The translations under genes were made by a program, and so were the position numbers. Shown in pieces: positions 5,076-38,090 of a stretch of DNA of 64,000 nucleotides. Location: positions 69,131-133,130 of the forward strand of contig JAWKPM010000006.1 of assembly GCA_041390625.1 (NCBI GenBank), in the 5' to 3' direction. This DNA comes from Dehalococcoidia bacterium. GTDB taxonomy: Bacteria > Chloroflexota > Dehalococcoidia > UBA2979. Under the pieces are notes generated by a model, which worked only from the letters and a program-made list of their open reading frames with translations, had not been told where the DNA came from and ran no database searches. The stretch's first letter is position 1. Every line of letters starts with the position of its first letter.

Positions 5076-5828
5076 ATGAAGCAGTTGGAACGAGGAGTCA
5101 TGACGACACCCAAGCACCGCCAGTGGCTCGGAGTCACGACGTTGCTGGCTGCCACGGCGGCCATTGCCGCATTCGCCGCGGTCTTCGGATGGCCGGGGCT
5201 CGCCTCGGCGCAGTCACCGGGCCCCGGAGCGGGCGGTCCTCGCGTGGGCGGCGGCGTCCACGGCGACGCGCCCACGCCCGGCGGGATCGGCCTGATGGTG
5301 ACCACTCGCGACCAGGATCGCGACCAGATCATGCTGCAGCTGCAGGACCAGGACTGTGAGCCGCTCACGCTGGCGACGCTCACCGACGGTCGCTGGCACA
5401 TCTACATCCCCGGCGGTCCGGCTCAGCTGCAGAGCGATTTCCCGCAGCAGCTGGCGGCGGACACGCCGTTCTTCGTGCGTTGCCGCGACGCGGCGCCTGC
5501 GGTGGTTCGCGTTGGCGCGGACGACAGCGGCTCGAGCGTGAGCCTCGAGGTGGGTCAGCGGCTTCGGGTGACGCTGGAGTCGAACCCCACGACCGGGTAC
5601 AGCTGGCAGCTCACCGGCGCGCCGGACCCGGCAGTCCTCGAGCAGGTGCTTGGGCCGATCTACATCGGTGGAGCGTCGGACCTCGTGGGGGCCGCCGGGA
5701 CCGAGACGTTCGACTTCCTCGCGGTGGGAGCGGGTACGACCTCGATCTCGCTGGAGTACGCGCGGCCGTTCGAGGCGAACTCGATGACGGATGCGTGGAC
5801 GATCGATGTGACGGTGACGGCGCCCTAG
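5076..5828 (+). CDS. Secreted chagasin-family (I42) cysteine-peptidase inhibitor with an N-terminal extension
   Basis: Signal peptide MTTPKHRQWLGVTTLLAATAAIAAFAAV. The C-terminal domain has the three chagasin loops: NPTTGYSWQ, GAAGTETFDF and YARPFE. The start may be ATG 5076 or ATG 5100. Confidence 0.8.
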   Translation: MKQLERGVMTTPKHRQWLGVTTLLAATAAIAAFAAVFGWPGLASAQSPGPGAGGPRVGGGVHGDAPTPGGIGLMVTTRDQDRDQIMLQLQDQDCEPLTLATLTDGRWHIYIPGGPAQLQSDFPQQLAADTPFFVRCRDAAPAVVRVGADDSGSSVSLEVGQRLRVTLESNPTTGYSWQLTGAPDPAVLEQVLGPIYIGGASDLVGAAGTETFDFLAVGAGTTSISLEYARPFEANSMTDAWTIDVTVTAP

Positions 5829-5872
5829 CGCCTCGATCTGGGTGCGGGCGGCTGTTCGTTCCGGAGGGTGGA

Positions 5873-5951
5873 CGCCCCTTCGGGGCGGCGGCCCGCCCGT
5901 CCAGCCCTCTGGCTCGGGCGCAGCTAGGGGCCTCGCCCCTCGCGATCCCTC
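5873..5951. repeat. Intergenic palindromic repeat element, copy B
   Basis: gccccttcggggcggcggcccgcccgtcc...ggggcctcgcccctcgcgatccc, directly 3' of the chagasin stop. Confidence 0.55.
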
Positions 5952-6014
5952 TTTTAGGAGCTTGAGGGTTCGCTCCGCGCAGCCTCGATGTGCGTTACTC
6001 CTCGGTGAGCCCGC

Positions 6015-7967
6015 CTAGACGAGAGTGACAGGCTCCCAGCGCTTTTCGAGCTGCTCGCGGAGGCGGGCGGCCTTCTCCGGGCCGTGCTTTGCCGTGACGA
6101 GGTCCACGATCTTGTGGCGGCATTCGCCGTTCACGTCCTGGTGGCCGCAGACGTTGCAGGGGAAGCGCTTGCAGTCGAGCGTGACCTCCTCGTTGAGGGT
6201 CTTCATCCACTCGCCTCGGAGGAAGGGCTTCTGCGTCGCGGAGTCGATGTGGTCCCACGGCAGCGCCTCCCAGAGGTCGCGGTCGCGGTGGGCGTAGTCG
6301 GCGGGGTTCAGGCCGTGCTGGTCGAAGGCCTGCTGCCAGATCGACCAGTCGTGACGCTCGGACCAGGCATCGAAGGTGGCGCCGTTGCGCCAGGCGGTCT
6401 CGATGACGTCGGCGACGCGGCGGTCGCCCCTCGAGAGCACGGCCTCGAGGAGGGACTTCTCGGGGTCCTCCCATGTGAACTGGACGCCGGCGCGCTTGCA
6501 GCCGTCGCGCAGGAGGCGGTGGCGGCGTCGCAGCGTCTCGGCGTCGCACTGGGCGAGCCACTGGTAGGGCGTGTGCGCCTTCGGGATGAAGTTCGAGGTG
6601 GAGACGCGCACGCGGGCGCGGCCGCCGATGTGCCTACGGCCGATGGCCTTCACCTCGGAGGCGATGCGCACGATCTCCTCGACGTCGAAGTCGGTCTCGG
6701 TGGGCTGGCCGACCATGAAGTACATCTTGATCGAGGTCCAGCCGTTGGCGAAGGCGTTCTCAGCGGCTGAGAGCAGCTGCTCCTCGGTGATGAGCTTGTT
6801 GATGGTGTTGCGGAGGCGCTGCGAGCCGGCCTCGGGGGCGAGGGTGAGGGTGTGCTTCTTGCCTCGGGCGACGGCGTTCGCGATCTCGACGGAGAACGAG
6901 TCGACGCGGGTCGAAGGGATCGAGATCTTGAGGCCTCGATCGCCGTAGGCGTCCATGAGGGCGTGGACCATGGGCGCGATCTCGGTGTGGTCGGTCGTGG
7001 AGAGCGACATCAGCGAGAGCTCCTGGTAGCCGGTGTTGTCGAGGAGCTCGCCGGCGGCGCGCACGACCTCCTCGACGGAGCGCTCGCGGGTGGGGCGGTA
7101 GATCATCCCGGCCTGGCAGAAGCGGCAGCCCTGGGTGCAGCCGCGCTGGATCTCGATGGTGGCGCGGTCGTGGACGACCTCCATGAAGGGGACGATCGGC
7201 TTCGTGAGGGGCGGGGGCAGCTGCTGGACGACGCGGCGGACGACGCGCGCGGGAGCGGCCTCGTCGATGGGAACGGTCTCGAGGTAGCGCCCGGCCTCGT
7301 CGTAGCGGGCTTCGTACAGCGAGGGGACGTAGACGCCCCAGACGCGGGCGAGGCGGCGGTAGAGCTCGATGCGGGGCTCGCCCGAGGTCTTCCAGTCGCG
7401 GACGGCGTTCGCCACGTCCTCGATGACCTCTTCGCCCTCGCCGCAGACGAACGCGTCGAAGAAGGCGTGCATCGGCTCCGGCTCGAGGGCGGCCGAGCCG
7501 CCGGCGATGACGATGGTGTCGTCGCGGCCTCGGTCGGCGGCGCGGATGGGGATGCCGGCGAGGTCGAGCAGGTTCAGGACGTTGGTGAAGCAGACCTCGT
7601 ACTGGAGCGTGATGCCGAGGATGTCGAAGTCGCTCACAGGGTGGCGCGTCTCGAGGGAGCGCAGCGGCTCGTTGTGCTCTCGGAGCAGCGCCTCGAAGTC
7701 GGTCCAGGGCGAGAAGACGCGCTCGCAGAGCGTGTCGTCCCGCTTGTTGAGGATGTCGTAGAGGATGGCCAGGCCGAGGTTCGACATGCCGAGGTCGTAG
7801 AGGTCGGGGTAGGCGAGCACCACGCGCAGGTCGCGGGCGTCCCAGTCCTTTGCGATCGAGTGGAGCTCGCCGCCGGCGTAGCGGGTGGGCTTCTGAACGC
7901 GGCCAATCAGTCGCTCGTAGATCGACGAGTCGGAGGTCGCGGCCGGTCGTTCGATGGTGGTGGTCAT
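6015..7967 (-). CDS. Radical SAM protein of the TIGR03960-like uncharacterised family, about 650 aa
   Basis: CTQGCRFC (Cx3Cx2C) radical SAM cluster motif. The six-frame ORF runs to 8669, but homology begins at MTTTIERP (ATG at 7967). Confidence 0.8.
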   Translation of the reverse strand: MTTTIERPAATSDSSIYERLIGRVQKPTRYAGGELHSIAKDWDARDLRVVLAYPDLYDLGMSNLGLAILYDILNKRDDTLCERVFSPWTDFEALLREHNEPLRSLETRHPVSDFDILGITLQYEVCFTNVLNLLDLAGIPIRAADRGRDDTIVIAGGSAALEPEPMHAFFDAFVCGEGEEVIEDVANAVRDWKTSGEPRIELYRRLARVWGVYVPSLYEARYDEAGRYLETVPIDEAAPARVVRRVVQQLPPPLTKPIVPFMEVVHDRATIEIQRGCTQGCRFCQAGMIYRPTRERSVEEVVRAAGELLDNTGYQELSLMSLSTTDHTEIAPMVHALMDAYGDRGLKISIPSTRVDSFSVEIANAVARGKKHTLTLAPEAGSQRLRNTINKLITEEQLLSAAENAFANGWTSIKMYFMVGQPTETDFDVEEIVRIASEVKAIGRRHIGGRARVRVSTSNFIPKAHTPYQWLAQCDAETLRRRHRLLRDGCKRAGVQFTWEDPEKSLLEAVLSRGDRRVADVIETAWRNGATFDAWSERHDWSIWQQAFDQHGLNPADYAHRDRDLWEALPWDHIDSATQKPFLRGEWMKTLNEEVTLDCKRFPCNVCGHQDVNGECRHKIVDLVTAKHGPEKAARLREQLEKRWEPVTLV

Positions 7968-8177
7968 CGGAGGGTCCTCACGTGGGGCTGCGGTGTGGCC
8001 GGGCGCGCGACGCGCCTCGGGCCCCGGGAATCGTGGTCCGCATGCTGGGATTCGTGGTTGCTTCGAGTGATCAGGGTACCCATTGGTCCCAAGCCGACGC
8101 CAGCGTTCGGGGTGATTCTCGGTGCTTGCCGGGTGCCGTACGATGAGGACCTCGCGGAGGGTTTGCTGGAGGCATGG

Positions 8178-8258
8178 ATGCGCAAGGCACTTGGGCTCGT
8201 CGTACTGGTCGGCGTCGTCACCGCCGGTGTCGGCATGTGGTGGTGGCGCAAGGCCTAG
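8178..8258 (+). CDS. Candidate 26-aa single-transmembrane micro-protein
   Basis: GGAGG lies 6 nt upstream of the ATG. Translation is MRKALGLVVLVGVVTAGVGMWWWRKA. It is absent from the ORF track because it is short. It sits in the divergent promoter region between the radical SAM and MBL genes. Confidence 0.3.
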   Translation: MRKALGLVVLVGVVTAGVGMWWWRKA

Positions 8259-8358
8259 CCTCGACGGGGTAGCCCCCGCCTCGAGTCTCACTTCTCGGCA
8301 GCGGAATCTGCGATTCGCGACCTCGCCACGCGAGGTGTGACTGTGCCCGGGAGCAGCC

Positions 8359-9156
8359 ATGCATCGAACGAACGTCGGCGACATCGAGATCACCGCGCTG
8401 ATCGACATGGTGCAGGCGTACGGCGCCGCGGGTGTGTACTCCGAGGCCGGTGACGCACTGCAGCAGTACGCCCAGTTCCTCGATGGCGAAGGCAAGGTCA
8501 CGCTCAACTTCGCCTGCTTCCTGCTGCGGGCCGACGGGCGCACCGTCCTCGTGGATGCGGGGAACGGGCCGGAGGCGGACGGGAAGCTCCTCGAGGAGCT
8601 CGAGGCGGCCGGGGTGAGCGCCGGCGACATCGACGCGGTGCTGTTCACGCACCTGCACGGCGACCACACGGGCTGGAACCTCGTGCGGGAGAGTGGGCAA
8701 CCTCGATTCCCGAACGCGCGGTACCTCGTGCCGCAGGGCGACTGGAATCACTACCGCGTGCAGGACCCGCAGCCGAAGTCGTTCGTGCGCGACATGCTGC
8801 CGCTCGATGCCCTCGGGGTGATGGATCTCGTGGCTGGGGAGTACGAGATCACGCCGTCCCTCGTGACGTGGCACACGCCGGGGCACACGCCCGGCCATCT
8901 CTCGGTGGTGGCGAAGTCGGGCGGGGTGGAGGCGTACGTCATCGGGGACGCGCTGCTCACGCCCATCGATGTGGCGGAACCGGACTGGGTGACGACCTGG
9001 GACTGGGACGCCGAGCACGTGCGGGCGACGCGTCGAGCGCTGATCGAGCGCGTCGAGGCCTCGAACGCCCTCGTGGCGGCGTCGCATCTGCCGGTGCCGG
9101 GGCTCGGTCACCTCGCGACCGAGGGCGGGCGACGGGTGTTCCAGCCGCTCGGGTAG
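8359..9156 (+). CDS. MBL-fold metallo-hydrolase
   Basis: THLHGDHTG metal-binding motif. GGGAG RBS 5 nt upstream. 265 aa. Confidence 0.85.
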   Translation: MHRTNVGDIEITALIDMVQAYGAAGVYSEAGDALQQYAQFLDGEGKVTLNFACFLLRADGRTVLVDAGNGPEADGKLLEELEAAGVSAGDIDAVLFTHLHGDHTGWNLVRESGQPRFPNARYLVPQGDWNHYRVQDPQPKSFVRDMLPLDALGVMDLVAGEYEITPSLVTWHTPGHTPGHLSVVAKSGGVEAYVIGDALLTPIDVAEPDWVTTWDWDAEHVRATRRALIERVEASNALVAASHLPVPGLGHLATEGGRRVFQPLG

Positions 9157-9192
9157 GCGGTTGCGGGCCGCGTTTAGGGGCTCGGCACCTCG

Positions 9193-9579
9193 CTAGCCGT
9201 TCGGCGCGCTCTGGGTCCGGTCTCCGGCGCGGAGAACCCCTCGCCTTCGCAGCTCGCGGTAGAAGTCATCGACGTACGTTCCGGAACCGCCCCAGATGCT
9301 CCGTCTGATCTGGAATCGGTACAGCTGCGCATCCGTGCGTAGCCAGAGAACCGGGGGTCTCCATCGCGAGTCCTCGACGTCCACGGAGGCAATGTCCGAG
9401 ATCGGAACGCGAACGACCCTCGGGACTGACCGGCCGGCAACCCAGGCCATCCAGATGAGTGGTCGCCATGTCTGCGTCCAGATGAGGGCGTCCACCGTTA
9501 GCTCGAGCCGTCCGTGTCCTAAGCGTAGCCGGAGCCCCCGGCCGACAACGCCGGCCGCGAACGCGGCCATGTCTGCCAT
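9193..9579 (-). CDS. Hypothetical protein
   Basis: Its start lies 4 nt after the stop of the upstream luciferase-like gene, consistent with an operon. No recognisable motif. Confidence 0.35.
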   Translation of the reverse strand: MADMAAFAAGVVGRGLRLRLGHGRLELTVDALIWTQTWRPLIWMAWVAGRSVPRVVRVPISDIASVDVEDSRWRPPVLWLRTDAQLYRFQIRRSIWGGSGTYVDDFYRELRRRGVLRAGDRTQSAPNG

Positions 9580-9582
9580 CGC

Positions 9583-10578
9583 TTACACCTTGATCATGGC
9601 CTCGAGGGTCTTGCCGACCTCCGCTACGGAGCCGTTGGGCATGTGCAGCATCTGGATGTCGGCGCCGAGAGCGGCGCGCTCCTGGAGCTGCTCGCGCACC
9701 GACTCGATGGGGCCGATCACCTCGATCTCGCGGACCATTTCCTCGGTGATGGCAGCGAAGGAGGCCTCGACGTCGCGGTTGGCCCACGCCTCGCGCGAGG
9801 CGGCGACCTCGGCCTCGAAGCCGTTGCGGGTGAGCATCTGCCAGTAGAAGACGCCCATGCGGTTGATGTAGTACTGCAGCGGCTGGCGGGCGGCGCGCCA
9901 TTCGGCCTCGTCGTTCGTGCCGTCGAGGATGTGCACGTGCGTTTGCACTGCAATTGTCAGGTTTGAGGGGTCGCGGCCGACGGCCGTCGCGCCCTCGATG
10001 AGCTGGTCTTTGAGGTCCTTGAAGTGCTGGCGCGGCCAGTGGATCGGGATGATGCCATCGGCGATCTCGCCGGTCTGGCGAATCGACTTCGGGGTGATGG
10101 CGGCGATGTAGACGGGGATGTGGTTCCTCGGGCGGTCGTAGGGGAGCTTGAAGTCGCGGCTCATCTGGAAGATCTCGCCCTGGTAGTTCAGGGGCTCACC
10201 GCTGATCAGGGTGTTGAAGATCTCGACGTACTCGCGGAGGCGGCGCAGCGGCTTCTCGAATTTCATTCCGTGGAAGTGCTCGATCACGAAGGCGCCGGAC
10301 GAGCCGAGGCCGAGGATCGCGCGGCCGCCCGAGATCTGGTCGATTGCGGCGAACTCCTGCGCCAGCGCAGCGGGCGTCCGGGAGAAGCAGTTCAGGATTG
10401 ACGAGCCGATCTCGATCTTCGAGGTGTTCGCGGCGAGCACGGAGAGCCACGGGACGGGCGAGAGCGACCAGGCCTCGGTGCCGACGACGCGCTCATAGCC
10501 AAGGTCCTCGGCGATGCGCACCTTCTCGAGGGTCTCGCGCCAGTCCTCACCCATGCCTGCAATCAGTCCGAGTCGCAT
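9583..10578 (-). CDS. Luciferase-like monooxygenase (LLM) class, F420-dependent oxidoreductase-like
   Basis: 331 aa. TIM-barrel LLM features GLGSSGAFVIEHFHG and IPVYIAAITPKSI are typical of F420-dependent LLM oxidoreductases. Confidence 0.85.
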   Translation of the reverse strand: MRLGLIAGMGEDWRETLEKVRIAEDLGYERVVGTEAWSLSPVPWLSVLAANTSKIEIGSSILNCFSRTPAALAQEFAAIDQISGGRAILGLGSSGAFVIEHFHGMKFEKPLRRLREYVEIFNTLISGEPLNYQGEIFQMSRDFKLPYDRPRNHIPVYIAAITPKSIRQTGEIADGIIPIHWPRQHFKDLKDQLIEGATAVGRDPSNLTIAVQTHVHILDGTNDEAEWRAARQPLQYYINRMGVFYWQMLTRNGFEAEVAASREAWANRDVEASFAAITEEMVREIEVIGPIESVREQLQERAALGADIQMLHMPNGSVAEVGKTLEAMIKV

Positions 10579-10679
10579 CGTGTCTCCTTCGCGTCAGGTT
10601 CGGGGCGCATCGTAGCCGGTGTGGACGCTCGGCACTTGCCCGGCCGGGCGTCGCGTCGGATGCTGGGATCGCTCCAACC

Positions 10680-11714
10680 ATGATCTCGCTTCCGCCGGAG
10701 CTATTGGCGGCCGGAGAGTCCTCGATGCTGCGCGCCCTCCCCACGTCCCGCGTGCCCGTACTGCGCCACGGCGCCACCACACTCCTCGGGCTGGTCGCCG
10801 CCGGCGCGCTGGTCGCGTGCGGCGGGGGCAACGACGACCCGGGCTGGTCGGCACAGGCGATCGCGGAGTCCGGCACCTCGGCGGTCCAGCCCATCCTCGT
10901 GAACTCCGGCGTCGGCGTGGGCGAGGCGCGACTGGCCTTCGGGCTGTTCGACCGCGACGGGAACCTGCTCAACGAGGTCAGCGAGCCCAAGGTGCGGCTC
11001 TACACCCTCGATGGAGAGGACGGCACCCTAGCCGAGGAGTACGCGCTCAGCCCCTCGCGGCTTGTGGGTGAGGGGACGCCGCACGAGCACGCGGACGGCG
11101 AGCAGCACCTCCACGAGGGGCCGGTGACCACCGTCTTCGTTTCGAATGTCGAGCTGACGCAGCCGGAGTGGTGGGGCGCGGAGCTCTCGTTCGGCGTCGG
11201 CGACGAGACGTTCGAGGGGCTGCGGCTGCGGTTCTTCGTGCAGGAGGACACGTCCGAGCCGGCGGTGGGCGAGGCCGTTCCTGCCTCGAAGCAGCTCACG
11301 GTCGCGGACGTCGACGACATCAGCCTCGTGGACACGGCGTTCACGCCGAACGCGGCACTGCACGACATGACGGTCGCGGACGCCCTCGCGAGCGGCCGGC
11401 CCTCGGTGATCGCCTTCGCGACGCCGCTGTTCTGCCAGACGCGCTTCTGCGGGCCGGTGGTGGAGCAGGTGGTGACGCCGATCTGGGAGCAGTACGGGGA
11501 TCGCGTCAACGTGATGGCGATCGAGCCGTACGACGTCGCCGAGGCGCGCGCCGGACAGCTCGTGCCTGTGGCCACGATGCAGGAGTGGGGTCTGCAGACC
11601 GAGCCGTGGATCTTCGTGGTCGACGGGGAGGGGCGCGTCGTGGCCAAGTTCGAGGGCATCATGGGCCTCGATGAGGTCTCGGCCGCCGTGGATCGCGTCC
11701 TCGCCTCCGGCTAG
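10680..11714 (+). CDS. Putative lipoprotein with a C-terminal thioredoxin-like region
   Basis: Signal peptide plus lipobox LVAC-GGG. The C-terminal region has FCQTRFCGP. ATG 10725 is an alternative start. Confidence 0.55.
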   Translation: MISLPPELLAAGESSMLRALPTSRVPVLRHGATTLLGLVAAGALVACGGGNDDPGWSAQAIAESGTSAVQPILVNSGVGVGEARLAFGLFDRDGNLLNEVSEPKVRLYTLDGEDGTLAEEYALSPSRLVGEGTPHEHADGEQHLHEGPVTTVFVSNVELTQPEWWGAELSFGVGDETFEGLRLRFFVQEDTSEPAVGEAVPASKQLTVADVDDISLVDTAFTPNAALHDMTVADALASGRPSVIAFATPLFCQTRFCGPVVEQVVTPIWEQYGDRVNVMAIEPYDVAEARAGQLVPVATMQEWGLQTEPWIFVVDGEGRVVAKFEGIMGLDEVSAAVDRVLASG

Positions 11715-12231: not shown

Positions 12232-12339
12232 CGGCGTTTCGCCCGTCATTCCAAGCATCTACCTCTCCTTAACGGGCGTGCTGTCACGCTCGATGGTGCG
12301 AATTCGCCATCGAGGACCAGTGCGCCGAATCGAGGCACG

Positions 12340-12606
12340 ATGCCGTACCGCCGTTCGCCGAGTGTGATCTTCGAGGTCGTGGATGGGCGCGCGATGCTCG
12401 TCTCCGCCGACGGGTCCGAGCTGCTCTCGCTCAACCCGGTGGGGACGCGCGTGTGGCAGCTGGTCGACGAGCACGAGGGCGACTCGGGTCGCCTGGCCTC
12501 GGCGTTGCTGTCGGAGATCGAGGGCGTCGAGCGCGACGAGCTCGAGCGCGACATTGCCGACTTCCTCTCCACGCTCTCCAGCGAGTCGCTCATCGAGCAG
12601 CGCTGA
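12340..12606 (+). CDS. PqqD-family protein, RiPP precursor recognition element-like
   Basis: 88 aa. VVDGRAMLVSADGSELLSLNPVGTRVWQLVDEH...DELERDIADFLSTL fits the PqqD pattern (winged helix, acidic C-terminal helix). Its stop overlaps the next start (TGATG). Confidence 0.75.
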   Translation: MPYRRSPSVIFEVVDGRAMLVSADGSELLSLNPVGTRVWQLVDEHEGDSGRLASALLSEIEGVERDELERDIADFLSTLSSESLIEQR

Positions 12607-13370
12607 TGCTCGAGGTCCAGCACCTCTCGAAGCGCTTCGAGCCGCCGCCGTTCTGGCTGCGGCTGCTCAGCCGTGTCGCCGCGCCGGAACCGGTGCAGGC
12701 GCTGGCCGGCGTCTCATTCGACGTCGCGCCCGGCGAGGTGGTGGGGCTGGTCGGCGCGAACGGCGCCGGGAAGACCACGCTGCTGCGGACGGTCGCGGGC
12801 CTCGTCGTGCCCTCGGAGGGGGACGTGCGCGTCGGCGGCCTCGACCCGACGCGCGACGGCGCGGCGCGGCAGCTCATGGGCATCGCGATGGCGGACGACC
12901 GCGGGTTCTACTGGCGTCTGAACGGTCGACGGAACCTCGAGCTGTTCGGGGTGCTGGGCGGGCTCACGCCGGCCGCGGCGGAGGCTCGCGCCGACGAGCT
13001 GCTCATCGAGGCAGGCCTCGCGCATCGGGACCGGATGCTGTTCGGGTACTCGTCCGGGATGATCACGCGGCTGCAACTGGCGCGCGCCTTCCTCGCGATG
13101 CCGCCACTGCTGCTCCTCGATGAGCCGACGCGCAGCCTCGACCCGGTCGTCAGCAAGCAGGTGCGCAGGTGGATCCGGGGGGCGGCCGACCGCGGCGCCG
13201 CAGTGCTGTTCTCCAGCCACGACCTCGATGAGGTGGTGGAGGTCTGCGACCGCGTGCTCGTGCTGAACTCGGGCGTCGTCGTGCGCCACGAGGCGGCGGC
13301 CAACCTGCGCGGTGAGGCCGAGCTGGGGGTGCGGTCGTTGCTGCAGTCGATCGAGCCGGTGGCCTCGTGA
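12606..13370 (+). CDS. ABC transporter ATP-binding protein, exporter type
   Basis: Walker A GANGAGKTT, signature YSSGM, Walker B LLLLDEPT, H-loop SSHD. Confidence 0.9.
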   Translation: MLEVQHLSKRFEPPPFWLRLLSRVAAPEPVQALAGVSFDVAPGEVVGLVGANGAGKTTLLRTVAGLVVPSEGDVRVGGLDPTRDGAARQLMGIAMADDRGFYWRLNGRRNLELFGVLGGLTPAAAEARADELLIEAGLAHRDRMLFGYSSGMITRLQLARAFLAMPPLLLLDEPTRSLDPVVSKQVRRWIRGAADRGAAVLFSSHDLDEVVEVCDRVLVLNSGVVVRHEAAANLRGEAELGVRSLLQSIEPVAS

Positions 13371-14197
13371 GCGCGGCGTTCGCACGGCCGTCGTCGAACC
13401 TCGAGCGGGTGATTGCGCTCGGGAAGCGCGATCTGCGGGTGCAGCTGTCGTACCACTTCGGGCAGCTGATGCAGCTGCTGGCGATCGCGATGCCGATCGT
13501 CACGTTCTTCTACGTCTCGCAGCTCGTGGGCGACGACTCGGCGCTCGGGGACTACCAGGGCGGGTACTTCGAGTTCGTGCTCATCGGGTTGGTAGCGACG
13601 ACGTTGTCGACCCTCGGTGCGCGGCTGTTCAGCACGATGGTGGCGCGGGAGCAGAGCGAGGGCACACTCGACGCGCTGCTGCGCACGCCGACGCCGCTGT
13701 GGGTGCTGCTAGCCGGTTCAACGCTGTGGCCGCTCGGGTTCGCGGCGCTGGAGATCGGCGTGTACCTCGGTGTCGGCGCCGGCGCCCTCGGTGCCGGCTT
13801 CTCGGCCAGCGGGCTGCTGCTGGCGCTGCCGGTGGCGCTGCTGACGGTCGCGGTGTTCGCGGCGATCGGCATCTTCTCGGCGGCGTTCATCGTCGTCACG
13901 AAGCGGGGTGAGCCGCTGGGGCCGCTGGTGAACGCGGCGACCTCGCTGTTCGCCGGTGCGCTGTTCCCGGTGGCACTGCTGCCGGGCGCGCTGCAGGTCG
14001 TGGGACGGATGCTGCCTTCGTACTACGCCATCGAGGGGTTGCGCGAGGCGCTCCTCGGCGCGGGGACGTTCGCCTCGGTCGCCGACGAGATCGCCATCCT
14101 CGGCGTCATGGCGGCGGTGCTGCTTCCGCTCTCGGTGTGGACGCTGTCGCAGGCGCTGCGCTGGGGCCGCATCTCCGGCACGCTGGCCAGCTTCTAA
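13367..14197 (+). CDS. ABC-2 type transporter permease
   Basis: GTGA overlap with the ATPase gene. Six predicted TM segments. Typical ABC-2 exporter layout. Confidence 0.8.
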   Translation: MSAAFARPSSNLERVIALGKRDLRVQLSYHFGQLMQLLAIAMPIVTFFYVSQLVGDDSALGDYQGGYFEFVLIGLVATTLSTLGARLFSTMVAREQSEGTLDALLRTPTPLWVLLAGSTLWPLGFAALEIGVYLGVGAGALGAGFSASGLLLALPVALLTVAVFAAIGIFSAAFIVVTKRGEPLGPLVNAATSLFAGALFPVALLPGALQVVGRMLPSYYAIEGLREALLGAGTFASVADEIAILGVMAAVLLPLSVWTLSQALRWGRISGTLASF

Positions 14198-14268
14198 GCC
14201 AGCTTTCGACACTCGGCAGGCTTCGGTGCGATGCGTGGCCTCGGGCGAGGTCGGTCGGGTGTCCGCGC

Positions 14269-15225
14269 CTAGGCGACGCGCGTGTCGGACGCAGAGGCGA
14301 TGGTGTCGAGGAGGCGACCGGCGTCGGCGACGCGCGTCGCGGGGTCGGCGCCGAGGCGCAGGCGCCAGGCGGGGCCGCGGGCGACGGTGGAGGCAAGCGG
14401 CATGAGGCGCGTCAGGGCCTCGTGGCTGCCGGCGGCGGGGTGTGAGGCGACGAGCTCGCGCAGCAGCTCGAGGGCGTTGGCGGGCTCGGTGTAGCCGAGC
14501 GCGCTCTTCGCATGGTCGAGCCAGAGCGTGCCGGCGAGCGGATGCCAGCCGGCGCCCAGCACGGTGGCCGGGAGCTGCCAGCGCTCGCGTGCGTCGCGGG
14601 TCATGCGTCGGGCGCCGGCGGGGATGCCGTCGGCGAGCTCGCCGGGGACGGCGACCGGCTTCGGGATGCCGCAGATCTCGACGGGAGTCTCGGCGCCGTC
14701 CTCGGAACGGCGCAGGACGACGTGGTCGTCGCCGAGGATGCGCCAGCCGGAGCGGTGCGCGGCGAAGGTGGTGGTCGACTTGCCTCGACCGCTCGCGCCC
14801 ATGACGAGGAGCGCGATGCCGTCGCGCTCGATGGCGGCGGCGTGGAGGAGCGGGCGCTCGAAGGGCGAGAGGAGGTCGGCGAGCACGGGCTGGCCGATCC
14901 AGGCCAGCCGGCGCGCGAGGTCCGGCCCATCGCCTCGGATTGTGGCATCGCCGCCGGCGACGCGGGCGGTGAGGCCCCAGCACTCGACGGTGTAGGTGTC
15001 GCCGTCGCGCCAGCCGAGCTGGCCGCCCACGTCCTCGTCCGGGTCGCGAGTCGGGAGATCGAGGGCGCCGGGTGCGAACTCGATGCGGGCCCGGGGCCGG
15101 AGTCGGGTCGGCGCGAGCGTGCCGAAGGCGGTCGCGAGCGCCTTGCGATGCCGGGCGGTCGTGCCCACGAACTCGGTGGGGAGGTCGCCCAGGAGACGGA
15201 CGGGGTTGGGGTCTCGAGCGGTCAT
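14269..15225 (-). CDS. HPr-kinase (HprK) C-terminal-domain-like P-loop kinase, RiPP-associated type
   Basis: P-loop GASGRGKST followed by ILGDDHVVL, which resembles the HprK LxADDxV motif. 318 aa. Last gene of the minus-strand operon with the peptidase and nucleotidyltransferase. Confidence 0.7.
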   Translation of the reverse strand: MTARDPNPVRLLGDLPTEFVGTTARHRKALATAFGTLAPTRLRPRARIEFAPGALDLPTRDPDEDVGGQLGWRDGDTYTVECWGLTARVAGGDATIRGDGPDLARRLAWIGQPVLADLLSPFERPLLHAAAIERDGIALLVMGASGRGKSTTTFAAHRSGWRILGDDHVVLRRSEDGAETPVEICGIPKPVAVPGELADGIPAGARRMTRDARERWQLPATVLGAGWHPLAGTLWLDHAKSALGYTEPANALELLRELVASHPAAGSHEALTRLMPLASTVARGPAWRLRLGADPATRVADAGRLLDTIASASDTRVA

Positions 15226-15328
15226 GCGCGGGCCTCGTGCCGGTGTCTACGTCAGGGGCGAGCGTAGATTTCGAGGCGCGTCAAACGCGTAGGAGGGGCG
15301 TATCGATTCGTTTTTGGCCGCGTGGGTG

Positions 15329-15358
15329 GGGTGGACGGCGGAAGTCCGCCGTCCACCC
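15329..15358 (-). promoter_or_regulatory. Perfect 12-bp GC stem-loop immediately downstream of the candidate precursor ORF
   Basis: ggtggacggcgg-aagt-ccgccgtccacc, plus a flanking g/c pair. It lies 12 nt past the stop of the 15370..15477 ORF and upstream of the kinase gene. No U-tract follows, so it is more likely a processing or attenuation hairpin than a full terminator. Confidence 0.4.
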
Positions 15359-15369
15359 GCCCGTCGTGA

Positions 15370-15477
15370 CTAGCGGTTCCGGAAGAAGAAGTAGTTTCCG
15401 GAGTAGTTGCCGCTCCCACGGTGGAGCTGGCCAACGACGCTGACACGCTCCTCAATAGCCGGCTTCTGGTACGTCAC
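15370..15477 (-). CDS. Candidate RiPP precursor peptide, 35 aa
   Basis: A minus-strand small ORF not in the ORF track. AGGAGG lies 4 nt upstream of the GTG. Translation is MTYQKPAIEERVSVVGQLHRGSGNYSGNYFFFRNR. Same strand as, and between, the S24 peptidase and HprK-like kinase genes. Confidence 0.35.
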   Translation of the reverse strand: MTYQKPAIEERVSVVGQLHRGSGNYSGNYFFFRNR

Positions 15478-15591
15478 GGGTCCTCCTACGTGAACCTGGG
15501 TGGAGCCAGATCTTTGGGCCCACGCGCGCAAGCGCACGTATGGCGATCGTAAGAAGGCGGAAGACCTTCCGATGAAGGCGGTGAGCGGCCT

Positions 15592-16053
15592 TCAGCGGCC
15601 AAGCCAGCGCCGGACGCGGCGCGCGCCGAGGCGGACCGCCAGGCCTCGGAGGGTGCGGTGGGCGAGGGCGATCGCCGTCGGCGGGAGGCGGCGGACGCCA
15701 TCGAGGGGGGCGGTGCGGCCGTTGCGGCGGACGCGGACGGCGCGGCCGACGAGCATCGAAGGCTCGACGGGCGGGTCGTCGTGCTGTGCGTCGCCCGCGA
15801 AGCGCATCGAGCGGCCGCGGCGGCCGAGGTAGCGGTGCACGACGAGGACGCCCGCGGCATCGACGTAGGCCCACACCTCGCCGAGGCGCGGGCCTCGGTT
15901 GGCGACCTCGAGCAGGACCTCGCTGCCGGCGCGGATGGTGCGGCCCATCGAATCGCCCTCGACGGGGAGCCAGAGGCCGCCGGCCTGCACGCGTCGACGC
16001 AGGAGGTCGGCGCTCGCGGGAGAGCGCGACTCGCTGCCGGCATCGGAGGTCAC
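15592..16053 (-). CDS. S24/S26-family serine peptidase, LexA/signal-peptidase-like
   Basis: The GTG start overlaps the stop of the upstream gene (GTGA). GDSMGRT is the catalytic Ser motif shared by LexA and type I signal peptidase. About 153 aa. The longer ORF-track start (16182) would lie inside the upstream gene. Confidence 0.6.
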   Translation of the reverse strand: MTSDAGSESRSPASADLLRRRVQAGGLWLPVEGDSMGRTIRAGSEVLLEVANRGPRLGEVWAYVDAAGVLVVHRYLGRRGRSMRFAGDAQHDDPPVEPSMLVGRAVRVRRNGRTAPLDGVRRLPPTAIALAHRTLRGLAVRLGARRVRRWLGR

Positions 16054-17072
16054 ACGCTGCCTCGGACCCACGCGGCCGCGGCCTCGGGTGTCGCGCCGCG
16101 CACGAGCAGGGGCAGGAAGCGCAGGCGGCGGCGGTCGCCGCCGGGGGAGCCGGTGCCGAGGAGGCGCTGGCTCGGTCCCCACAGGCGTCGCCAGAGGGCG
16201 GGTCGCCAGCCACGAGGGGCTCCCGGGAGGCCGGGCGGGGGATCGAGGCCGAGCGTGACGAGGACGGTGCGCAGCGTCTCGTGGACGGGGACCTCGGCGC
16301 CCTCGCGCCTCGTCATGCGCCAGAAGGCGGGCCAGTCGACGGCCTCCTGCTCGTCTTCGGGGATCAGCATGCGGGCGATGTCGGCGTAGCCGATCAGGTA
16401 GCGGAAGCGGTCGCGGTTCGTGTGGAGGAGGAGCTGGAGCAGCGCGGCCTCGGGGGCGAGGACGAGCGCCTCGGGACCGTCCTCGATGGCGATGGGGTGC
16501 ACGCCCTGCCAGAGCGCGCGCGGGTCGCGCGGCGTGACGCCGAGGCGCAGGAGGTCGAAGTGCACATCGACGGCGACCGTGCCGAGGTCGGTCGTGATGG
16601 GGACCTCGAGGACGGGAAGGCGCGACGCCTCGAGGGCGGCGCGCTTCTTCCTCGGGACCTCGAACTCAGGGGCGAGGGCCTCGACGAGGCGAGCGCCCTC
16701 GGCTCGCTGGTCGGGGTTCAGCCAGACGTCGAGGTCGGAAGCGGGGCGCTCGCTCGGGCGGGCGTACCAGCGCGCGGCGGCAGTGACGCCCTTGAACGAC
16801 GCCACCTCGAGGCCGGCCTCGGCGGCGCGGCGCTGGACCTCGGCGAGGGCGGAGCGTAGGACGCGATGGTGCTGGCGGTTCGCGAGGTCGATGCGGAGGA
16901 GGCGGGCGCGGTCGGCGTCCTCCACGGTGACGGCACCGGCCTCGATGCGGCTCCAGAGCAGGCCGGCCATGCGGTGGTCGATCGCCTGGTCGACGACGGC
17001 CGGCGAGGCGTGACGACCCTCGACCGCGCGCCGGGCGGCGAGATCGAGCAGCAGCGCGTCGGGCAGGGGCAT
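16050..17072 (-). CDS. Nucleotidyltransferase family protein, PF14907-like uncharacterised NTase
   Basis: FKGVTAAARWYARPSERPASDLDVWL matches the hG[GS]x9-13DhD Pol-beta NTase motif. 340 aa. First gene of the minus-strand operon. Confidence 0.65.
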   Translation of the reverse strand: MPLPDALLLDLAARRAVEGRHASPAVVDQAIDHRMAGLLWSRIEAGAVTVEDADRARLLRIDLANRQHHRVLRSALAEVQRRAAEAGLEVASFKGVTAAARWYARPSERPASDLDVWLNPDQRAEGARLVEALAPEFEVPRKKRAALEASRLPVLEVPITTDLGTVAVDVHFDLLRLGVTPRDPRALWQGVHPIAIEDGPEALVLAPEAALLQLLLHTNRDRFRYLIGYADIARMLIPEDEQEAVDWPAFWRMTRREGAEVPVHETLRTVLVTLGLDPPPGLPGAPRGWRPALWRRLWGPSQRLLGTGSPGGDRRRLRFLPLLVRGATPEAAAAWVRGSV

Positions 17073-17183: not shown

Positions 17184-18599
17184 CTAGTCGAGGACGGGCG
17201 GTGTGCGCTCGCCGTGGCGCGTGGCGGCCTCGAAGGCGTGCGCGAGCTGCAGCACGCCGAAGTCGTCGTGGTGGCGACCGACGATCTGGACGCCGACGGG
17301 CATGCCCTCGGGCGTCCAGCCGGCGGGGACGGAGATCGAGGGGTGGCCGAGCGGGGTGATCAGGTAGCAGGAGCGCATCCAGTCGATGTAGGACTCCATC
17401 TGCACGCCATCGATCTCGGTGGGGTACTCGGTCTCGACGTCGAACGGCGGCACCTGGTTCACGGGCATGATCATGAACTCGTACTGCTCCATGAAGGCGC
17501 GGACGCGGCCGTAGTAGGCGGAGCGCAGGGCCTCGGCGCGTGAGATGTCGGCACCGCTGAGGCGCTGGCCTTCCTCGATCTCGCGGACGATCGTGGCCTT
17601 GAGCTGGTCGCGGTGATTCGCGTAGCGGTCGGCGTGACGGTGGGCGGAGGCCCACGCACGGAGGGTCTTGAAGGCCTCGTCGGCGCCGGTGAAGTCGGGC
17701 TGTGCGGCCTCGACGGTGGCGCCCAGCGACTCGAGGACGGGGATCGTCGACTCGATGACGGCGCGGATGCGGGGGTCGACGGGGAGGCCGCCGAGGTCGG
17801 CGACGTAGGCGATGCGCGTGCCTCGGAAGTCGCGGTCGAGCGGCGCGGCGAACATCGAGCCGGGCTGCTCGATTGAGAGCGGCGCGCGCGGGTCGGGGCC
17901 AGCCATCGCGCTGAGGAGGAGGGCGACGTCGCCAACGTTGCGCCCCATCGGGCCGGTGACGGACATGTTCGTCCAGGCGAGGGGCGGCGTGGCGGGGACG
18001 CGGCCGTTCGAGGCACGGAAGCCGACGACGTTGTTGAAGTTGGCGGGGTTGCGCAGCGAGCCGCCGAGGTCCGAGCCGTCCGCAATCGGCAGCATGCGGC
18101 AGGCGAGCGCGACACCGGCGCCGCCGCTGCTGCCGCCCGCCGTCTTCGACGTGTCCCACGGGTTGAGGGTGGCGCCGAAGACCTGGTTGAAGGTGTGAGA
18201 GCCGGCGCCGAACTCCGGGGTGTTCGTCTTGCCGATGACGATGGCGCCGGCGGCCTTGAGTCGCTCGACGACGATGGCGTCCTGCGTCGGCACGTCGTCG
18301 GCGTGGATCGGCGAGCCCTGGGTGGTGCGGATGCCTTTCGTCGGGACGAGGTCCTTGATGGCGATGGGGAGGCCGTGGAGCGGGCCCGGCTCCTCGCCCC
18401 GGGCGAGGGCGTCATCGGCGGCGCGTGCGCCCTCGAGGGCGAGGTCGGGGCGCAGCGTCACGATCGCGTTCACCTTCGGGTTCACGCGGTCGATCTGGGC
18501 GAGGTGGGCCTCCATGACCTCGACGGCGGAGAGGTCGCGGGCCGCGAGGCGGGCGCGGAGCTCGCGGGCGGTGAGCAGGCAGATCGAGGTGTCGGGCAT
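17184..18599 (-). CDS. Amidase (amidase-signature family)
   Basis: GGSSGGAG signature plus the conserved K/S/S triad context. Start chosen at ATG 18599 (MPDTSICLL). Confidence 0.9.
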   Translation of the reverse strand: MPDTSICLLTARELRARLAARDLSAVEVMEAHLAQIDRVNPKVNAIVTLRPDLALEGARAADDALARGEEPGPLHGLPIAIKDLVPTKGIRTTQGSPIHADDVPTQDAIVVERLKAAGAIVIGKTNTPEFGAGSHTFNQVFGATLNPWDTSKTAGGSSGGAGVALACRMLPIADGSDLGGSLRNPANFNNVVGFRASNGRVPATPPLAWTNMSVTGPMGRNVGDVALLLSAMAGPDPRAPLSIEQPGSMFAAPLDRDFRGTRIAYVADLGGLPVDPRIRAVIESTIPVLESLGATVEAAQPDFTGADEAFKTLRAWASAHRHADRYANHRDQLKATIVREIEEGQRLSGADISRAEALRSAYYGRVRAFMEQYEFMIMPVNQVPPFDVETEYPTEIDGVQMESYIDWMRSCYLITPLGHPSISVPAGWTPEGMPVGVQIVGRHHDDFGVLQLAHAFEAATRHGERTPPVLD

Positions 18600-18738
18600 C
18601 GCGGGCCCTCCTGTCGCTGGTCCTCGAGGGCGGGCGGAGCATAGCGCGGCCCGAATCGGGCGTGCCGCCATACAATCCTGTGCCGAACTGCCCTCGAGCC
18701 CCCGTGCCTCGGGCTACGCGATCGGAGTCGACAGCGGC

Positions 18739-19953: not shown

Positions 19954-20018
19954 GGCCGCGGGCGGTGGTGTCCTCGGTCGCGCGCGGGCCTCGCCGCCTC
20001 GTATGCTCTTGGGGCACG

Positions 20019-20094
20019 CGCCGGTAGCTCAGCGGATAGAGCATCAGTCTTCGGAACTGAGGGTCGGGGGTTCGAATCCCTCCCGGCGCGCCAC
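20019..20094 (+). tRNA. tRNA-Arg, anticodon TCG
   Basis: 7-bp acceptor stem gcgccgg/ccggcgc. D-stem gctc/gagc. Anticodon stem tcagt/actga with loop ctTCGga. T-arm ggggg-ttcgaat-ccctc. Discriminator G. CCA is encoded. Confidence 0.85.
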
Positions 20095-27215: not shown

Positions 27216-30200
27216 AGCCGCTGCGCCTGCAGATCGAGGGGTTCACGGCGTTCCGGCGGCCGGCGGTCGTCGACTTCCGCGACCGCACGCTGTTCGCGAT
27301 CACCGGGCCGACGGGGGCGGGCAAGTCCTCGATCCTCGACGCGATGACGTGGGCGCTGTACGGCGCCGTGCCTCGGGTGGGGAACGCGACGAAGCAGCTG
27401 ATCACGCACGGCGAGCGGTCGCTGCGCGTGCAGCTCGACTTCGAGGCGCGGGGGCAGACGTACCGGGTGGCGCGGGCGACCTCGTTGAGCAGCAGCGGCG
27501 AGGCGCGCCTCGAGGTGCTGGCGGAGGACGGCGTCGCGTGGCGGTCGCTGTCGGACCGGGCACGTGAAGTCACCGAGCGGGTGACGTCGATCCTCGGGTT
27601 GGACTACGCCACGTTCACAAAGACCATCGTGCTGCCGCAGGGCGAGTTCGCCTCGTTCCTGCGCGGGGACGACAAGGACCGCCGCAAGATCCTGAGTGCG
27701 CTCCTGGGCCTCGAGACGTACATGGCGGCGGGGCGGGCGGCGCGGCAGCGGGCGCGCTCGGCGAAGGACGCGAGCGGGATGCTGGCGGCGCAGATCGAGC
27801 GACTGACGTTCGGGACGCCCGAGGCGATGGCCGCCCTGGAAGCGGAGCGCGCGGAGCTGGCGCGGCTGATCGCGGACCTCGATGTGCGACGCGGACACCT
27901 CGCGGCGCTCGAGGAGGCGACGGCCGCGCACCTCGATGCGCGGCGTGCGCTGGTGGCAGCGACCGAGGCGGCGACCGCGCGCGGCCTGGAGCTGACGCAG
28001 GCGCGCACTGACCTCGAGGGGATCGTGGCGCGGCGTACCGGCCTCGATGCGGACATCGCACGCCTCGAGGGTGAGCGGGCCGCGACGCGCTACGACACGG
28101 AGGAGCACACGCGACTCAAGCGAGCGGTCGAGCTCCTCGAACTGCGCGAGCAGGCCGAGGCCGCGGCGACGCGCGCGCGGGCCGCACTCGCCGAGGCCGA
28201 GCGTCGTGTCGAGGAGGCGCGTAGGAGCGGGACCGCCCTCGATGGTGAGGCGACGAAGGCTGCCGCCGCCGCCGGGGGAGCGAGCGAGGTGCGCGCCGCG
28301 GCCTCGAGTGTCGCGCTCGACGCGGCCGGGCGGGCGGCGACGCTCGCGGAGCGGCTCGAGGCGCTGGCGACCTCGAGCGTTGCCTCGGCGGCGGAAGCGG
28401 ATCGAGCGCGGGCGGCGGCCGAGCAGCGCGTCGCGCAGCTGGAGCAGCTGGCGCGCGTGTTGGCCGGGATCGACGAGGAGACGACGCGCCTCGAAGGTGC
28501 GCGTGCGGCAGCCGAAGCCGCGCTCGCCGACGCGACTGCGCGAGCCGAGGCGAGCGAGCGCGCGGCCGTCGAGGCCGAGGCGGGTCTCACCGAGGCGCGC
28601 GCACGCCTCGATGAGGCGACCGCCGGGGATGCCGCGGCCGCGCTGCGAGCGCGACTCAAGCCGGGCGACGTCTGCCCCGTCTGCGGGGAGGTCATCACCT
28701 CGATCGCGGAGCACGAGGCGACGCCTGACCTCGACGCTGCGCACGGCGCGGTCGAGGAGGCGGAGGCGGCGCTCGGCGCTGCACGTCGCGCGCGCGACCT
28801 CGATGTCTCCGCGCTGGCGCGAGCCACCGCGGCGCGCGACGAGGCACTGGCGGCCGAGGCGCGGCTGGCGCCTCGACGGGACGAGCTCGGCACGGCGCTG
28901 ACGAGTTCGGGAGTCGAGACCGCGGAGGCACTGGCGGCGGCAATCGAATCGACGCGCGCGAGCGGCCTCGATGCGGCGACGGAGCACGGGCGGGCGCGAG
29001 CCTTCGCGGAATCGACGCGCGGGGCCGGGCAGGCGCTGACGCAGATCATTGCCTCGGCGCGGGCGGCGCTCGGCCTCGAGGGGCTCGAGGTCGCGGCCGG
29101 CACGATCGACCTCAATGACGACACGCTCCTCGATGAGGCGGCGCGCGTCGGCGGCGAGCTCGAGCGGGCGCTCACGGCGCGGCAGCAGGCGGCGCGCATC
29201 GAAGAACAGGCCGCGCAGACGGCACGGGCGGCCGAGGATGCCGCTCGGCAGGGCGCCGAGACGCTGCGGCTGGCGGAGCGCGAGCAGGCGGCGGCCGCGC
29301 GTGCGGTCGAGGCGGCGGAGTCACAACTCACCTCGATCGCCGGAACCGGCGAGGCTGGCGCGGGCGCGACGCCCGAGGCGACGCGCACTGCGCTCGCCGA
29401 GGCGGAGCGGCAGGCGGCGAGCGTCGCCTCGATCGACGCGCGGCTGCAGGAACAGCGGACTGCGCTCGCGGTGCTCGTGCAGCAGCAGGACGACCGCAGC
29501 TCGATGGTCGCCCGCCTCGATGGGGAAGTGGCGCAGGCCGAGCGGGCGGGGGCGGAGGCGGCGGAGGCCGACCGCGTCGCGACCTCGACGTTCGAGCAGG
29601 CGTGGGTGGCGCTCGTCGGCAGCGAGACCGGCGCGCCGGCGGCGGACGCCGCGCGCGTGCCGGCGCTACGCCAGCGCATCGAGGACCGGGGACGCGAACA
29701 CGCCTCGAAGCTTGGCGCCCTCGAGGCGCGGATCGCGCAGGCGGCGGAGCAGGCGGCGCTGGCCGCGGAGCTGCGGGCGGAGATCGCGGAGCACGAGTCG
29801 CGTGCCCGCCTCGCGACGTCGCTGGAGCAGGAGCTGCACGCGGACCGTTTCATCGCATACGTGCAGCGCGAGGCGCTGGCGGTGCTGGCGGCCGACGCGT
29901 CCTCGCGGCTGCTTCACCTCACGGCGGAGCGCTACCGGCTGGAGGCGGACGCGGGCGAGTTCGTCGTGATCGACCAGCTCAACGGCGACGAGCGGCGCTC
30001 GGTGAAGACGCTGTCGGGCGGCGAGACCTTCCTCGCGAGCCTCGCGCTCGCCCTCGCATTGTCCGAGCGGCTGCCCGAGATCGCAGGCAACGGCGGGGCG
30101 ATGGCCCTCGAATCGCTGTTCCTCGATGAGGGCTTCGGCTCGCTGGACGCGGAGTCGCTGGACGTCGCGATCGAAGGCCTCGAGCGACTGGCGGGCGGGC

Positions 30201-37970: not shown

Positions 37971-38090
37971 CCGCCGTCGCGGCTGGCTGGAGGACGCGGC
38001 ATCTTCGATCAGCTCGCGTTCGATCCAGAGGTCGGCTCGACGCTCCGACGCATCTCGGCCGCCACGCGCCGCCTGCAACTGGCGGCGCTC

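Follow-up and report, generated by a model that had tools for sequence, protein, structure and literature searches.

A compact gene cassette is described here from a 64,000-nucleotide stretch of the genome of a Dehalococcoidia bacterium (Chloroflexota; contig JAWKPM010000006.1, positions 69,131 to 133,130); this whole stretch is called the window, and positions are counted from its first nucleotide. The seven genes at 12340-17072, which fill 4.7 kb as two convergent operons, probably form a self-contained cassette for a linear phosphorylated RiPP (ribosomally synthesised and post-translationally modified peptide). The cassette would be a distant Chloroflexota version of the Bacillota system for linear polyphosphorylated peptides (LPPs), first described by Popov et al. 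(Nat Commun 2026, May; PMC13381572). The locus extends the LPP family beyond Bacillota; neither its enzymes nor its logic are of a new kind, and it overturns nothing. The family is only months old, and the locus carries the same logic into the Chloroflexota, with reduced or rearranged forms in Actinomycetota. A first-pass annotation of this DNA had described a RiPP-type locus with a small open reading frame (ORF) as precursor gene and a PqqD-family recognition element, a description that the conserved leader and the homology to LppB bear out. It also stated that the locus belongs to none of the characterised RiPP classes, which no longer holds: a publication of May 2026 describes the LPP family, whose core gene set is the same.

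The cassette, the LPP system and the leader peptidase

The type LPP cluster, lppA-K-B-S-D-N, comes from Paenibacillus alginolyticus DSM5050 (PMC13381572). Its core comprises the signal peptidase I-like (SpI-like) peptidase LppS, the discrete RiPP recognition element (RRE) LppB, the HprK-like kinase LppK, the uncharacterised NTP-transferase LppN and the MsbA-like pump LppD, and each LPP cluster encodes between one and three precursors, 35-200 aa long, with the motif YxxPxVLxHQxIxFETxxS (PMC13381572). In experiments done in B. subtilis and in vitro, the LppA precursor gains 1-4 phosphates on core Ser3, and the S3A substitution abolishes them. Deletion of lppK abolishes phosphorylation, and deletion of lppS leaves a phosphorylated precursor uncleaved. 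Cleavage after LppA T-1 needs LppB, and LppS is inactivated by S29A, H68A or D93A (PMC13381572). The authors regard LPPs and paeninodins as restricted to Bacillota. Entries in Supplementary Data 1 place SpI-like peptidases beside 'other' RREs outside Bacillota, in Acidobacteriota, Chloroflexota (Brevefilum fermentans), Actinomycetota (Verrucosispora), Thermodesulfobacteriota and Desantisbacteria; in these entries the pairs are small clusters of the sequence similarity network (SSN), which the main text, with its focus on SSN cluster 1, does not pursue (PMC13381572). The LppS, LppB and LppA sequences used for comparison were taken from the same Supplementary Data 1.

The plus-strand operon of the window opens with a standalone 88-aa protein of the PqqD family (12340-12606; PF05402, E 3.1e-13), which resembles LppB and lasso B1 proteins and would be the discrete RRE. 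Its stop codon is overlapped by one base (TGATG, read directly at the junction) by the ATG at 12606 of a DrrA-like ATP-binding cassette (ABC) transporter ATPase (12606-13370; PF00005, E 7.6e-26; TIGR01188 drrA, E 1.6e-48), whose own stop codon overlaps the GTG start of an ABC-2 type permease (13367-14197; PF01061, E 6.2e-20; PF12698, E 8.1e-17). The minus-strand operon starts with a 340-aa nucleotidyltransferase-fold protein (NTase) resembling LppN and PsmN (16050-17072; PF14907, NTP_transf_5, E 3.6e-29). It is followed by a 153-aa SpI-like leader peptidase of the endoplasmic reticulum (ER)/archaeal Ser/His/Asp type, a homologue of LppS (15592-16053), whose start overlaps the NTase stop codon by 4 nt (GTGA). 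A 35-codon precursor gene with a GTG start comes next (15370-15477; M/V-TYQKPAIEERVSVVGQL-HRGSGNYSGNYFFFRNR), and the operon ends with the gene for a 318-aa P-loop protein of the HprK-like/ScmC family (14269-15225; PF27840), likened to LppK by family. A 13-bp G+C-rich hairpin lies on the same minus strand at 15329-15358, 12 nt 3' of the precursor stop codon. The six proteins and the 35-codon ORF are those of the first-pass annotation, found at the same positions and on the same strands by ORF listing and hidden Markov model (HMM) scans, and both of the translational couplings that it reported, TGATG between the PqqD and ATPase genes and GTGA between the NTase and peptidase genes, can be read in the sequence.

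The likeness to LPP clusters extends to a SpI-like Ser/His/Asp peptidase, a standalone RRE, an HprK-like kinase, a PF14907 NTP-transferase and an ABC exporter, and neither system has a cyclase or a B2 protease. Both have a short precursor in which an N-terminal YxxPx[V/I] leader precedes a hypervariable, Gly-rich and C-terminally basic core; the LppA cores are Gly/Asn-rich with basic C-termini (PMC13381572). A Ser lies 18-19 residues past the leader Tyr in both (Tyr+19 in the window and Tyr+18 for LppA Ser3 in a Tyr-anchored alignment). Radical SAM, YcaO, Lan, Asn-synthase and transglutaminase/B2 genes were all absent from the cluster and adjacent genes in the Pfam scan, and none of the six frames of the 64-kb window contains SGGxDS, the PP-loop motif of Asn-synthase, so that the first-pass statement that lasso cyclase, B2, Lan, YcaO and radical SAM genes are missing stands.

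An NCBI protein with the name 'S24/S26 family peptidase' has the same sequence as the window peptidase, whose Pfam S24 match reaches only E 0.045 and for which the NCBIfam scan gave no match. BLASTP against LppS (WP_029196374.1), which at 151 aa is nearly the same length, gives 31% identity over 97 aa (E 1e-7), and comparison of a nine-sequence family profile with LppS by hhalign gives a probability of 96.8% (E 2.3e-10). Residues S35, H73, D88 and D93, which are invariant in 9 relatives, align with LppS S29, H68, D87 and D93. When the PDB is searched with the profile, signal peptidase I and SEC11A are the top matches, and H73 falls on the Lys of VAKR in 4me8, a bacterial signal peptidase I, and on the His of VHRV in SEC11A, which are the general-base positions of the S26 family. 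A His at this position identifies a Ser/His SpI-like peptidase and not a LexA-type Ser/Lys autoprotease.

An AlphaFold2 (AF2) model of the peptidase (predicted local distance difference test, pLDDT, 78.6) has the LexA/signal-peptidase fold, and Foldseek searches with it return the LexA C-domain (3e-4), SEC11C (5e-4) and SEC11A (8e-4). In the model a helix at residues 10-25 lies ahead of the catalytic Ser, where helix alpha1 of LppS is described; this N-terminal helix is amphipathic, a long basic helix forms the C-terminus, and there is no transmembrane anchor. The protein shares with ER/archaeal signal peptidase I (S26B: SipW, SEC11) the clan SF fold and, all aligned with SEC11A, a Ser-Met motif, a His at the general-base position and GD...D aspartates. 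It differs from these enzymes in lacking a transmembrane anchor and in its expected substrate, an RRE-presented RiPP leader and not a signal peptide.

Peptidases of this kind are numerous. At a threshold of E<=1e-10, an exhaustive profile search yields 2,345 representative clusters (50% identity), and most of the 150 best matches listed are 105-190 aa long. Among the longer of the matches listed there are apparent fusions of the peptidase to NTP_transf_5 (P0163, P0175 and P0144) and to an HprK-like domain (P0131); other apparent fusions, P0254 and P0165 among them, join it to a sugar-transfer ATP-grasp domain (PF14397) or an Asn_synthase fragment. The NTase-peptidase and peptidase-HprK fusions, if genuine, suggest a functional linkage of the proteins concerned.

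Precursor peptides, recognition element and modifying enzymes

Homologous small ORFs are present at the same position in at least nine loci, as the first-pass annotation had expected of a genuine precursor. They occur in all full-cassette loci with enough sequence (L001, L004, L011, L024-L026 and L028, the L numbers denoting individual loci) and in L009; the peptides are 35-42 aa long in full-cassette loci and 31 aa long in L009. Their common leader reads M-x-Y-[E/Q]-x-P-x-I-[V/E]-[E/D]-R-x-x-V-x-G-x-L. Beyond it the peptides diverge completely into hypervariable, Gly-rich and mostly basic tails: HRGSGNYSGNYFFFRNR in the window, QKGSGPRNGGGGRGGRR in L001, NRGSGNGYAYGIGRGNGPK in L004, NRPSGPRGGGRPGGGGRPGRR in L024 and ...GGGGMGSPEGHPDFWDKN in L025. 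A core Ser is nearly always present, usually after Gly (after Pro in L024). The peptides of the window, L001, L011, L004 and L024 have no Asp or Glu after GQL, and there is no Thr near the leader/core junction or at the -2 equivalent in the window peptide and four sister peptides. Searches of the PDB sequences and NCBIfam with the precursor gave no match.

Several features indicate that the ORF is a genuine precursor gene. Among five Dehalococcoidia-type genes, the differences between leader codons fall at 63 third positions, as against 38 first and 26 second positions, and 56 of the 100 differing codon pairs are synonymous. This third-position bias and synonymous share argue for a translated and selected peptide, and the pattern is consistent with purifying selection on the peptide. 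The GTG start of the window gene has AGGAGG 4 nt 5' of it. The hairpin after its stop codon gives an RNA fold of -39.6 kcal/mol (z -4.1), a stability not reached by any of 200 shuffled sequences. The equivalent ORFs in L001, L004 and L011 have a Shine-Dalgarno sequence and, in the same place, a 12-14-bp hairpin of unrelated sequence. The hairpin is likely to be a partial terminator or an mRNA stabiliser; a promoter and terminator scan of the locus gave no informative signal in this 73% G+C DNA.

The relation of the leader to that of LppA is partial. The YxxPxI part of the LPP leader motif is present, whereas its VLxHQxIxFET half is replaced by [V/E][E/D]RxxVxGxL. When the two leaders are aligned on the Tyr, V-V-G-Q-L of the window peptide falls on V-R-F-E-T, which ends at the LppA cleavage site.

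The recognition element is 27% identical to LppB over 74 aa (BLASTP, E 2e-6). Its residues N32, V34, D71 and F75 align with N33, V35, D70 and F74 of LppB, which fix the kink at the leader Pro, sandwich this Pro and hydrogen-bond the Tyr. Among solved structures in the PDB, the lasso RRE TbiB1 (5v1u) is the best match, over the full length at E 9.3e-7, with LppB (9x8z_B) at E 0.18, and the WxxP-specific RRE PbaB1 could not be aligned at all. These alignments lead to the prediction that the window protein is a discrete RRE of the YxxP-binding kind.

The kinase is 100% identical to a protein from a Dehalococcoidia metagenome-assembled genome, with a precomputed Pfam assignment to PF27840 (ScmC). 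In a search with its profile, HPr kinase (1ko7) is found at E 2.2e-7, the match covering the Walker A (GxSGxGKST) and LGDDHV motifs, and 20 relatives all keep residues H128, G148, K149, T151 and D167. The AF2 model (pLDDT 92.9) has phosphoenolpyruvate (PEP) carboxykinases as its best fold matches in the PDB (E 1.8e-8), and these enzymes share the P-loop region where the kinase profile matches HPr kinase. Sequence family and modelled fold suggest that the P-loop protein is an HprK-like kinase; it is likened to LppK on these grounds and not by LppK sequence. The family assignments made at first pass hold for PqqD and PF14907, with the E values given above, and less fully for the HprK-like protein, whose matches to Hpr_kinase_C (E 1.9e-4) and TIGR04352 (E 1e-11) are both partial and below the curated cut-offs. 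The same annotation had likened the locus to the HprK-related kinase/PqqD neighbourhoods catalogued in TIGRFAMs, and this turns out to be a loose resemblance: the score is 44.5 bits against an equivalog cut-off of 200 for TIGR04352, and 25.4 against 125 for TIGR04249 (ScmC) and 22.1 against 100 for TIGR04248 (ScmD). What the cassette has in common with the HprK-related kinase A/PqqD system of Haft (TIGR04352/TIGR04353) and with SynChlorMet (ScmC/ScmD) is an HprK-like P-loop protein (PF27840) paired with a small PqqD protein; it differs from them in these low scores and in having no radical SAM/SPASM partner.

The NTase contains the sequence KG...SDLDV, which is read as a putative G[SV]...DxD nucleotidyltransferase motif. 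It is 43-45% identical in the sister loci and has no match in a PDB sequence search or the NCBIfam scan. A parallel for this enzyme comes from the paeninodin and pseudomycoidin clusters (PadeK, ThcoK, PsmK; PsmN), where an HprK-like kinase that is leader-dependent and acts on a precursor Ser is accompanied by a PF14907 enzyme; PsmN is needed to add one or two hexoses to the pseudomycoidin phosphate (PMC6993621). These clusters also resemble the window in their B1-type RRE and [Y/W]xxP leader, and relatives of the window kinase occur in a true lasso cluster (L021). The window differs from them in having no macrolactam cyclase, B2 cysteine protease or core Asp/Glu ring acceptor, in its serine leader peptidase, and in its candidate Ser, which is internal and near the leader and not C-terminal.

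Distribution and modularity

Some ten independent loci, from metagenome-assembled genomes (MAGs) of Dehalococcoidia and from metagenomes, contain the cassette, and at none of them does it include a cyclase; pattern-based locus searches with narrower alignments returned 7 loci each. The order NTase-peptidase-precursor-kinase, convergent with PqqD-ABC-ABC-2, is found also in L001/L002/L003, L004/L005, L011 and L024, with 44-67% protein identity (64-67% for the permease in L001, L004 and L011). In L025, L026 and L028 the gene set is kept but arranged differently. Flanking genes differ among L001, L004 and the window. The conserved neighbourhood anticipated at first pass is thus present, in that the gene set recurs in the independent contigs L001, L004, L011, L024, L025, L026 and L028. 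In L020 the kinase, ABC-2 and PqqD side is present, and the contig ends there.

Other loci contain parts of this set. L009 has a peptidase, a kinase, a PqqD protein and the 31-aa precursor. In L015 (Dehalococcoidia, 5380-9282), a peptidase, a kinase and a PqqD protein occur with a fused MsbA-like exporter (ABC_membrane+ABC_tran in a 728-aa ORF); no NTase was found there, and a motif search did not find a precursor ORF. In L017 (4692-9307) and L019 (6230-9361, Thermoleophilia), a precursor, a PqqD protein, a ScmC-type kinase and NTP_transf_5 are joined by Transglut_core3, the lasso B2-type protease, and neither cluster has an Asn-synthase cyclase. The leaders of these two loci are lasso-like (Y-x-x-P-T-[L/I]-x-DHGSIADHTF), and their cores are strongly cationic and Lys/Pro- or Arg/Lys-rich (KPKGPKGPKGPKKPTPPGFSA; HGRRKKRRRRKHHPGTSNF). 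L017 additionally has an ABC ATPase and an ABC-2 permease. It lies amid sugar and polysaccharide genes, parallel to the capsule context reported for Bacillota LPPs.

Relatives of the kinase extend further still. L021, where Asn_synthase and Transglut_core3 occur alongside PqqD and an NTase, is a full lasso cluster, and in L022 the kinase relative stands beside a radical SAM-PqqD protein. In three loci on MAG contigs from Acidimicrobiia (L006, 7345-8963; L013, 3322-4773; L016, 6529-8089), 3-4 tandem genes for 31-32-aa precursors, which read MKYEAPAIVDRQAVEGLM...xSD..., adjoin a kinase that is 39% identical to that of the window. A tblastn search with the window proteins (E<=1e-3), which took in at most about 8 kb to either side (L013 and L016 are short contigs), detected neither PqqD nor an SpI-like peptidase, NTase or ABC gene at these loci. 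Two neighbouring genes in L006, encoding an acidic 214-aa protein and a 325-aa P-loop-like protein, have no Pfam match.

The leader peptidase associated with this kinase family is SpI-like in the window, B2 transglutaminase-like in L017 and L019, and not found at the Acidimicrobiia loci. It may be, although the case is a tentative one and the odds fall slightly short of even, that LPP-type chemistry is one branch of a large modular superfamily spanning several phyla, built around an HprK/ScmC-type kinase and a YxxP-leader precursor, with one leader peptidase exchangeable for another. The size of the SpI-like peptidase family, with about 2,300 clusters, and its apparent fusions to the NTase or the kinase would fit this view. 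If so, the Dehalococcoidia cassette would offer a compact, lasso-free model, with a 17-aa core, for studying the final product and the function of PF14907. The exchange of an SpI-like for a B2 peptidase within one kinase family also bears on how RiPP classes could arise from lasso-type recognition modules.

Proposed pathway, alternatives and genomic context

A pathway can be outlined for the window by analogy with the LPP and pseudomycoidin systems. The 35-aa precursor would be translated from its own strong ribosome-binding site, and the hairpin probably gives an excess of precursor transcript yet lets read-through reach the kinase gene. The standalone PqqD/RRE protein would bind the leader via Y3-x-x-P6-x-I8, and the kinase would phosphorylate a core Ser, possibly repeatedly; S22, which lies in the conserved G-S-G, is the most likely site. 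The soluble Ser35/His73/Asp93 peptidase, presumably dependent on the RRE to present its substrate, would then remove the leader near the end of V-V-G-Q-L. The register with LppA T-1 predicts a cut after L18 (L18/H19), which would leave a core of about 17 aa, HRGSGNYSGNYFFFRNR. The PF14907 enzyme may decorate the phosphate, as PsmN does, and the DrrAB-like ABC-2 pair would export the product. The phosphorylation, leader removal and ABC export proposed at first pass agree with this scheme by homology to the lpp cluster (PMC13381572), while the nucleotidylation that it also proposed is speculative, data on PF14907 enzymes of RiPP pathways being confined to PsmN and LppN. The compact cassette, with its 35-aa precursor and without a lasso or capsule neighbour, should ease study of the mature structure and of the NTase chemistry.

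A number of points weigh against the assignment to LPP. The locus comes from an uncultured MAG and is known here from its genes alone. It belongs to the Chloroflexota (Dehalococcoidia), with relatives in Actinomycetota, whereas the LPPs are from Bacillota, and its identity to LppS and LppB is low, at about 27-31%. Of the LPP leader motif only YxxPx[I/V] is shared, and the FET|xxS context is replaced by GQL-xxGSG, which makes guesses of both the cleavage site and the phosphorylation site. The RRE is no more distant from the lasso RRE TbiB1 than from LppB, the kinase falls under the curated cut-off of every named HprK-related model, and the exporter, a separate ABC ATPase and ABC-2 permease, is not MsbA-like and would be a functional analogue only of the fused LppD. 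LppN itself showed no activity in the heterologous host, and deleting lppN changes nothing (PMC13381572). The window precursor and its relatives are also shorter, at 35-42 aa, than the 53-200 aa given in part of the rows of the LPP table; the genes form two convergent operons; and the cassette is not within a capsular-polysaccharide locus or beside a lasso cluster.

Since the RRE is equally near to TbiB1 and LppB, the cassette may have been independently assembled and not inherited, as a convergent analogue of the Bacillota LPP system in which the ScmC-family or PF14907 enzyme may install a group other than (poly)phosphate. This is unlikely, though it is the alternative to be taken most seriously. 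The differences in exporter type, gene order and C-terminal half of the leader fit it, as do the sub-cut-off scores of the kinase and the modularity of the kinase family, whose members accompany an SpI-like peptidase here, B2 in L017 and L019, a lasso cluster in L021, radical SAM in L022 and precursors only in L006, L013 and L016. Against it, the peptidase is specifically LppS-like in length, in the N-terminal helix followed by a Ser/His/Asp core and in the hhalign match, and all five functions co-occur as in LPP clusters. The Walker A and HprK-type motifs are intact, and the Ser stands at nearly the distance of the LppA phospho-Ser from the leader Tyr. A different history would make the RRE, kinase and NTase paeninodin-type genes of a split lasso cluster whose cyclase (and B2) lie elsewhere in the genome. 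The kinase relatives in the canonical lasso cluster L021, the TbiB1-like RRE and the lasso-type YxxPx[L/I] leader motif speak for it, and pseudomycoidin can form without B1 and B2 (PMC6993621). This reading is nevertheless very improbable, and a lasso cluster with a remote cyclase was rejected, because the predicted cores after GQL in the window, L001, L011, L004 and L024 have no Asp or Glu and hence no acceptor for a lasso isopeptide ring. The lack of Thr at the -2 equivalent, the absence of SGGxDS from the window and the roughly ten loci that never have a cyclase, and that have a dedicated SpI-like peptidase in place of B2, count against it as well.

It is scarcely credible that the locus has nothing to do with RiPPs and consists of a spurious small ORF and an unrelated ABC exporter beside a regulatory kinase and a LexA-like autoprotease. 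The poor Pfam S24 match of the peptidase and the presence of LexA among its top fold matches could be cited for this, yet the general base is His and not Lys, and the protein has neither a DNA-binding domain nor a LexA cleavage-site region; a LexA-like regulator was rejected on these grounds. The spurious-ORF explanation was rejected too, since the position, leader, ribosome-binding site and hairpin of the small ORF are kept across diverged loci and its codons show a third-position bias. A PqqD RRE with intact YxxP-binding residues is, moreover, always present.

The LPP-type cassette lies in DNA whose G+C content, across the window, is 69-77%. The nearest four flanking genes with a Pfam match encode a luciferase-like oxidoreductase, MgtC, an amidase and a GNAT protein resembling Eis; for one further ORF (10344-11714), which separates the luciferase-like gene from MgtC, Pfam gives no match. 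The luciferase-like gene (9583-10578) and the amidase gene (17184-18671) border the cassette on either side. In L001 a luciferase-like gene (6760-7788) is near the PqqD side, and in L020 an amidase gene (5748-6996) is near the cassette. Such neighbours may reflect synteny retained among related Dehalococcoidia, or they may be accessory genes. A tRNA-Arg(TCG) gene is located at 20018-20093, 3 kb past the NTase end of the cassette, and a tRNA-Ala(CGC) gene at 37980-38063. Two 2-kb bins, 28001-30000 and 36001-38000, deviate in composition (G+C 0.767 and 0.760, AT skew +0.185 and +0.219, respectively) and contain long overlapping ORFs on both strands.

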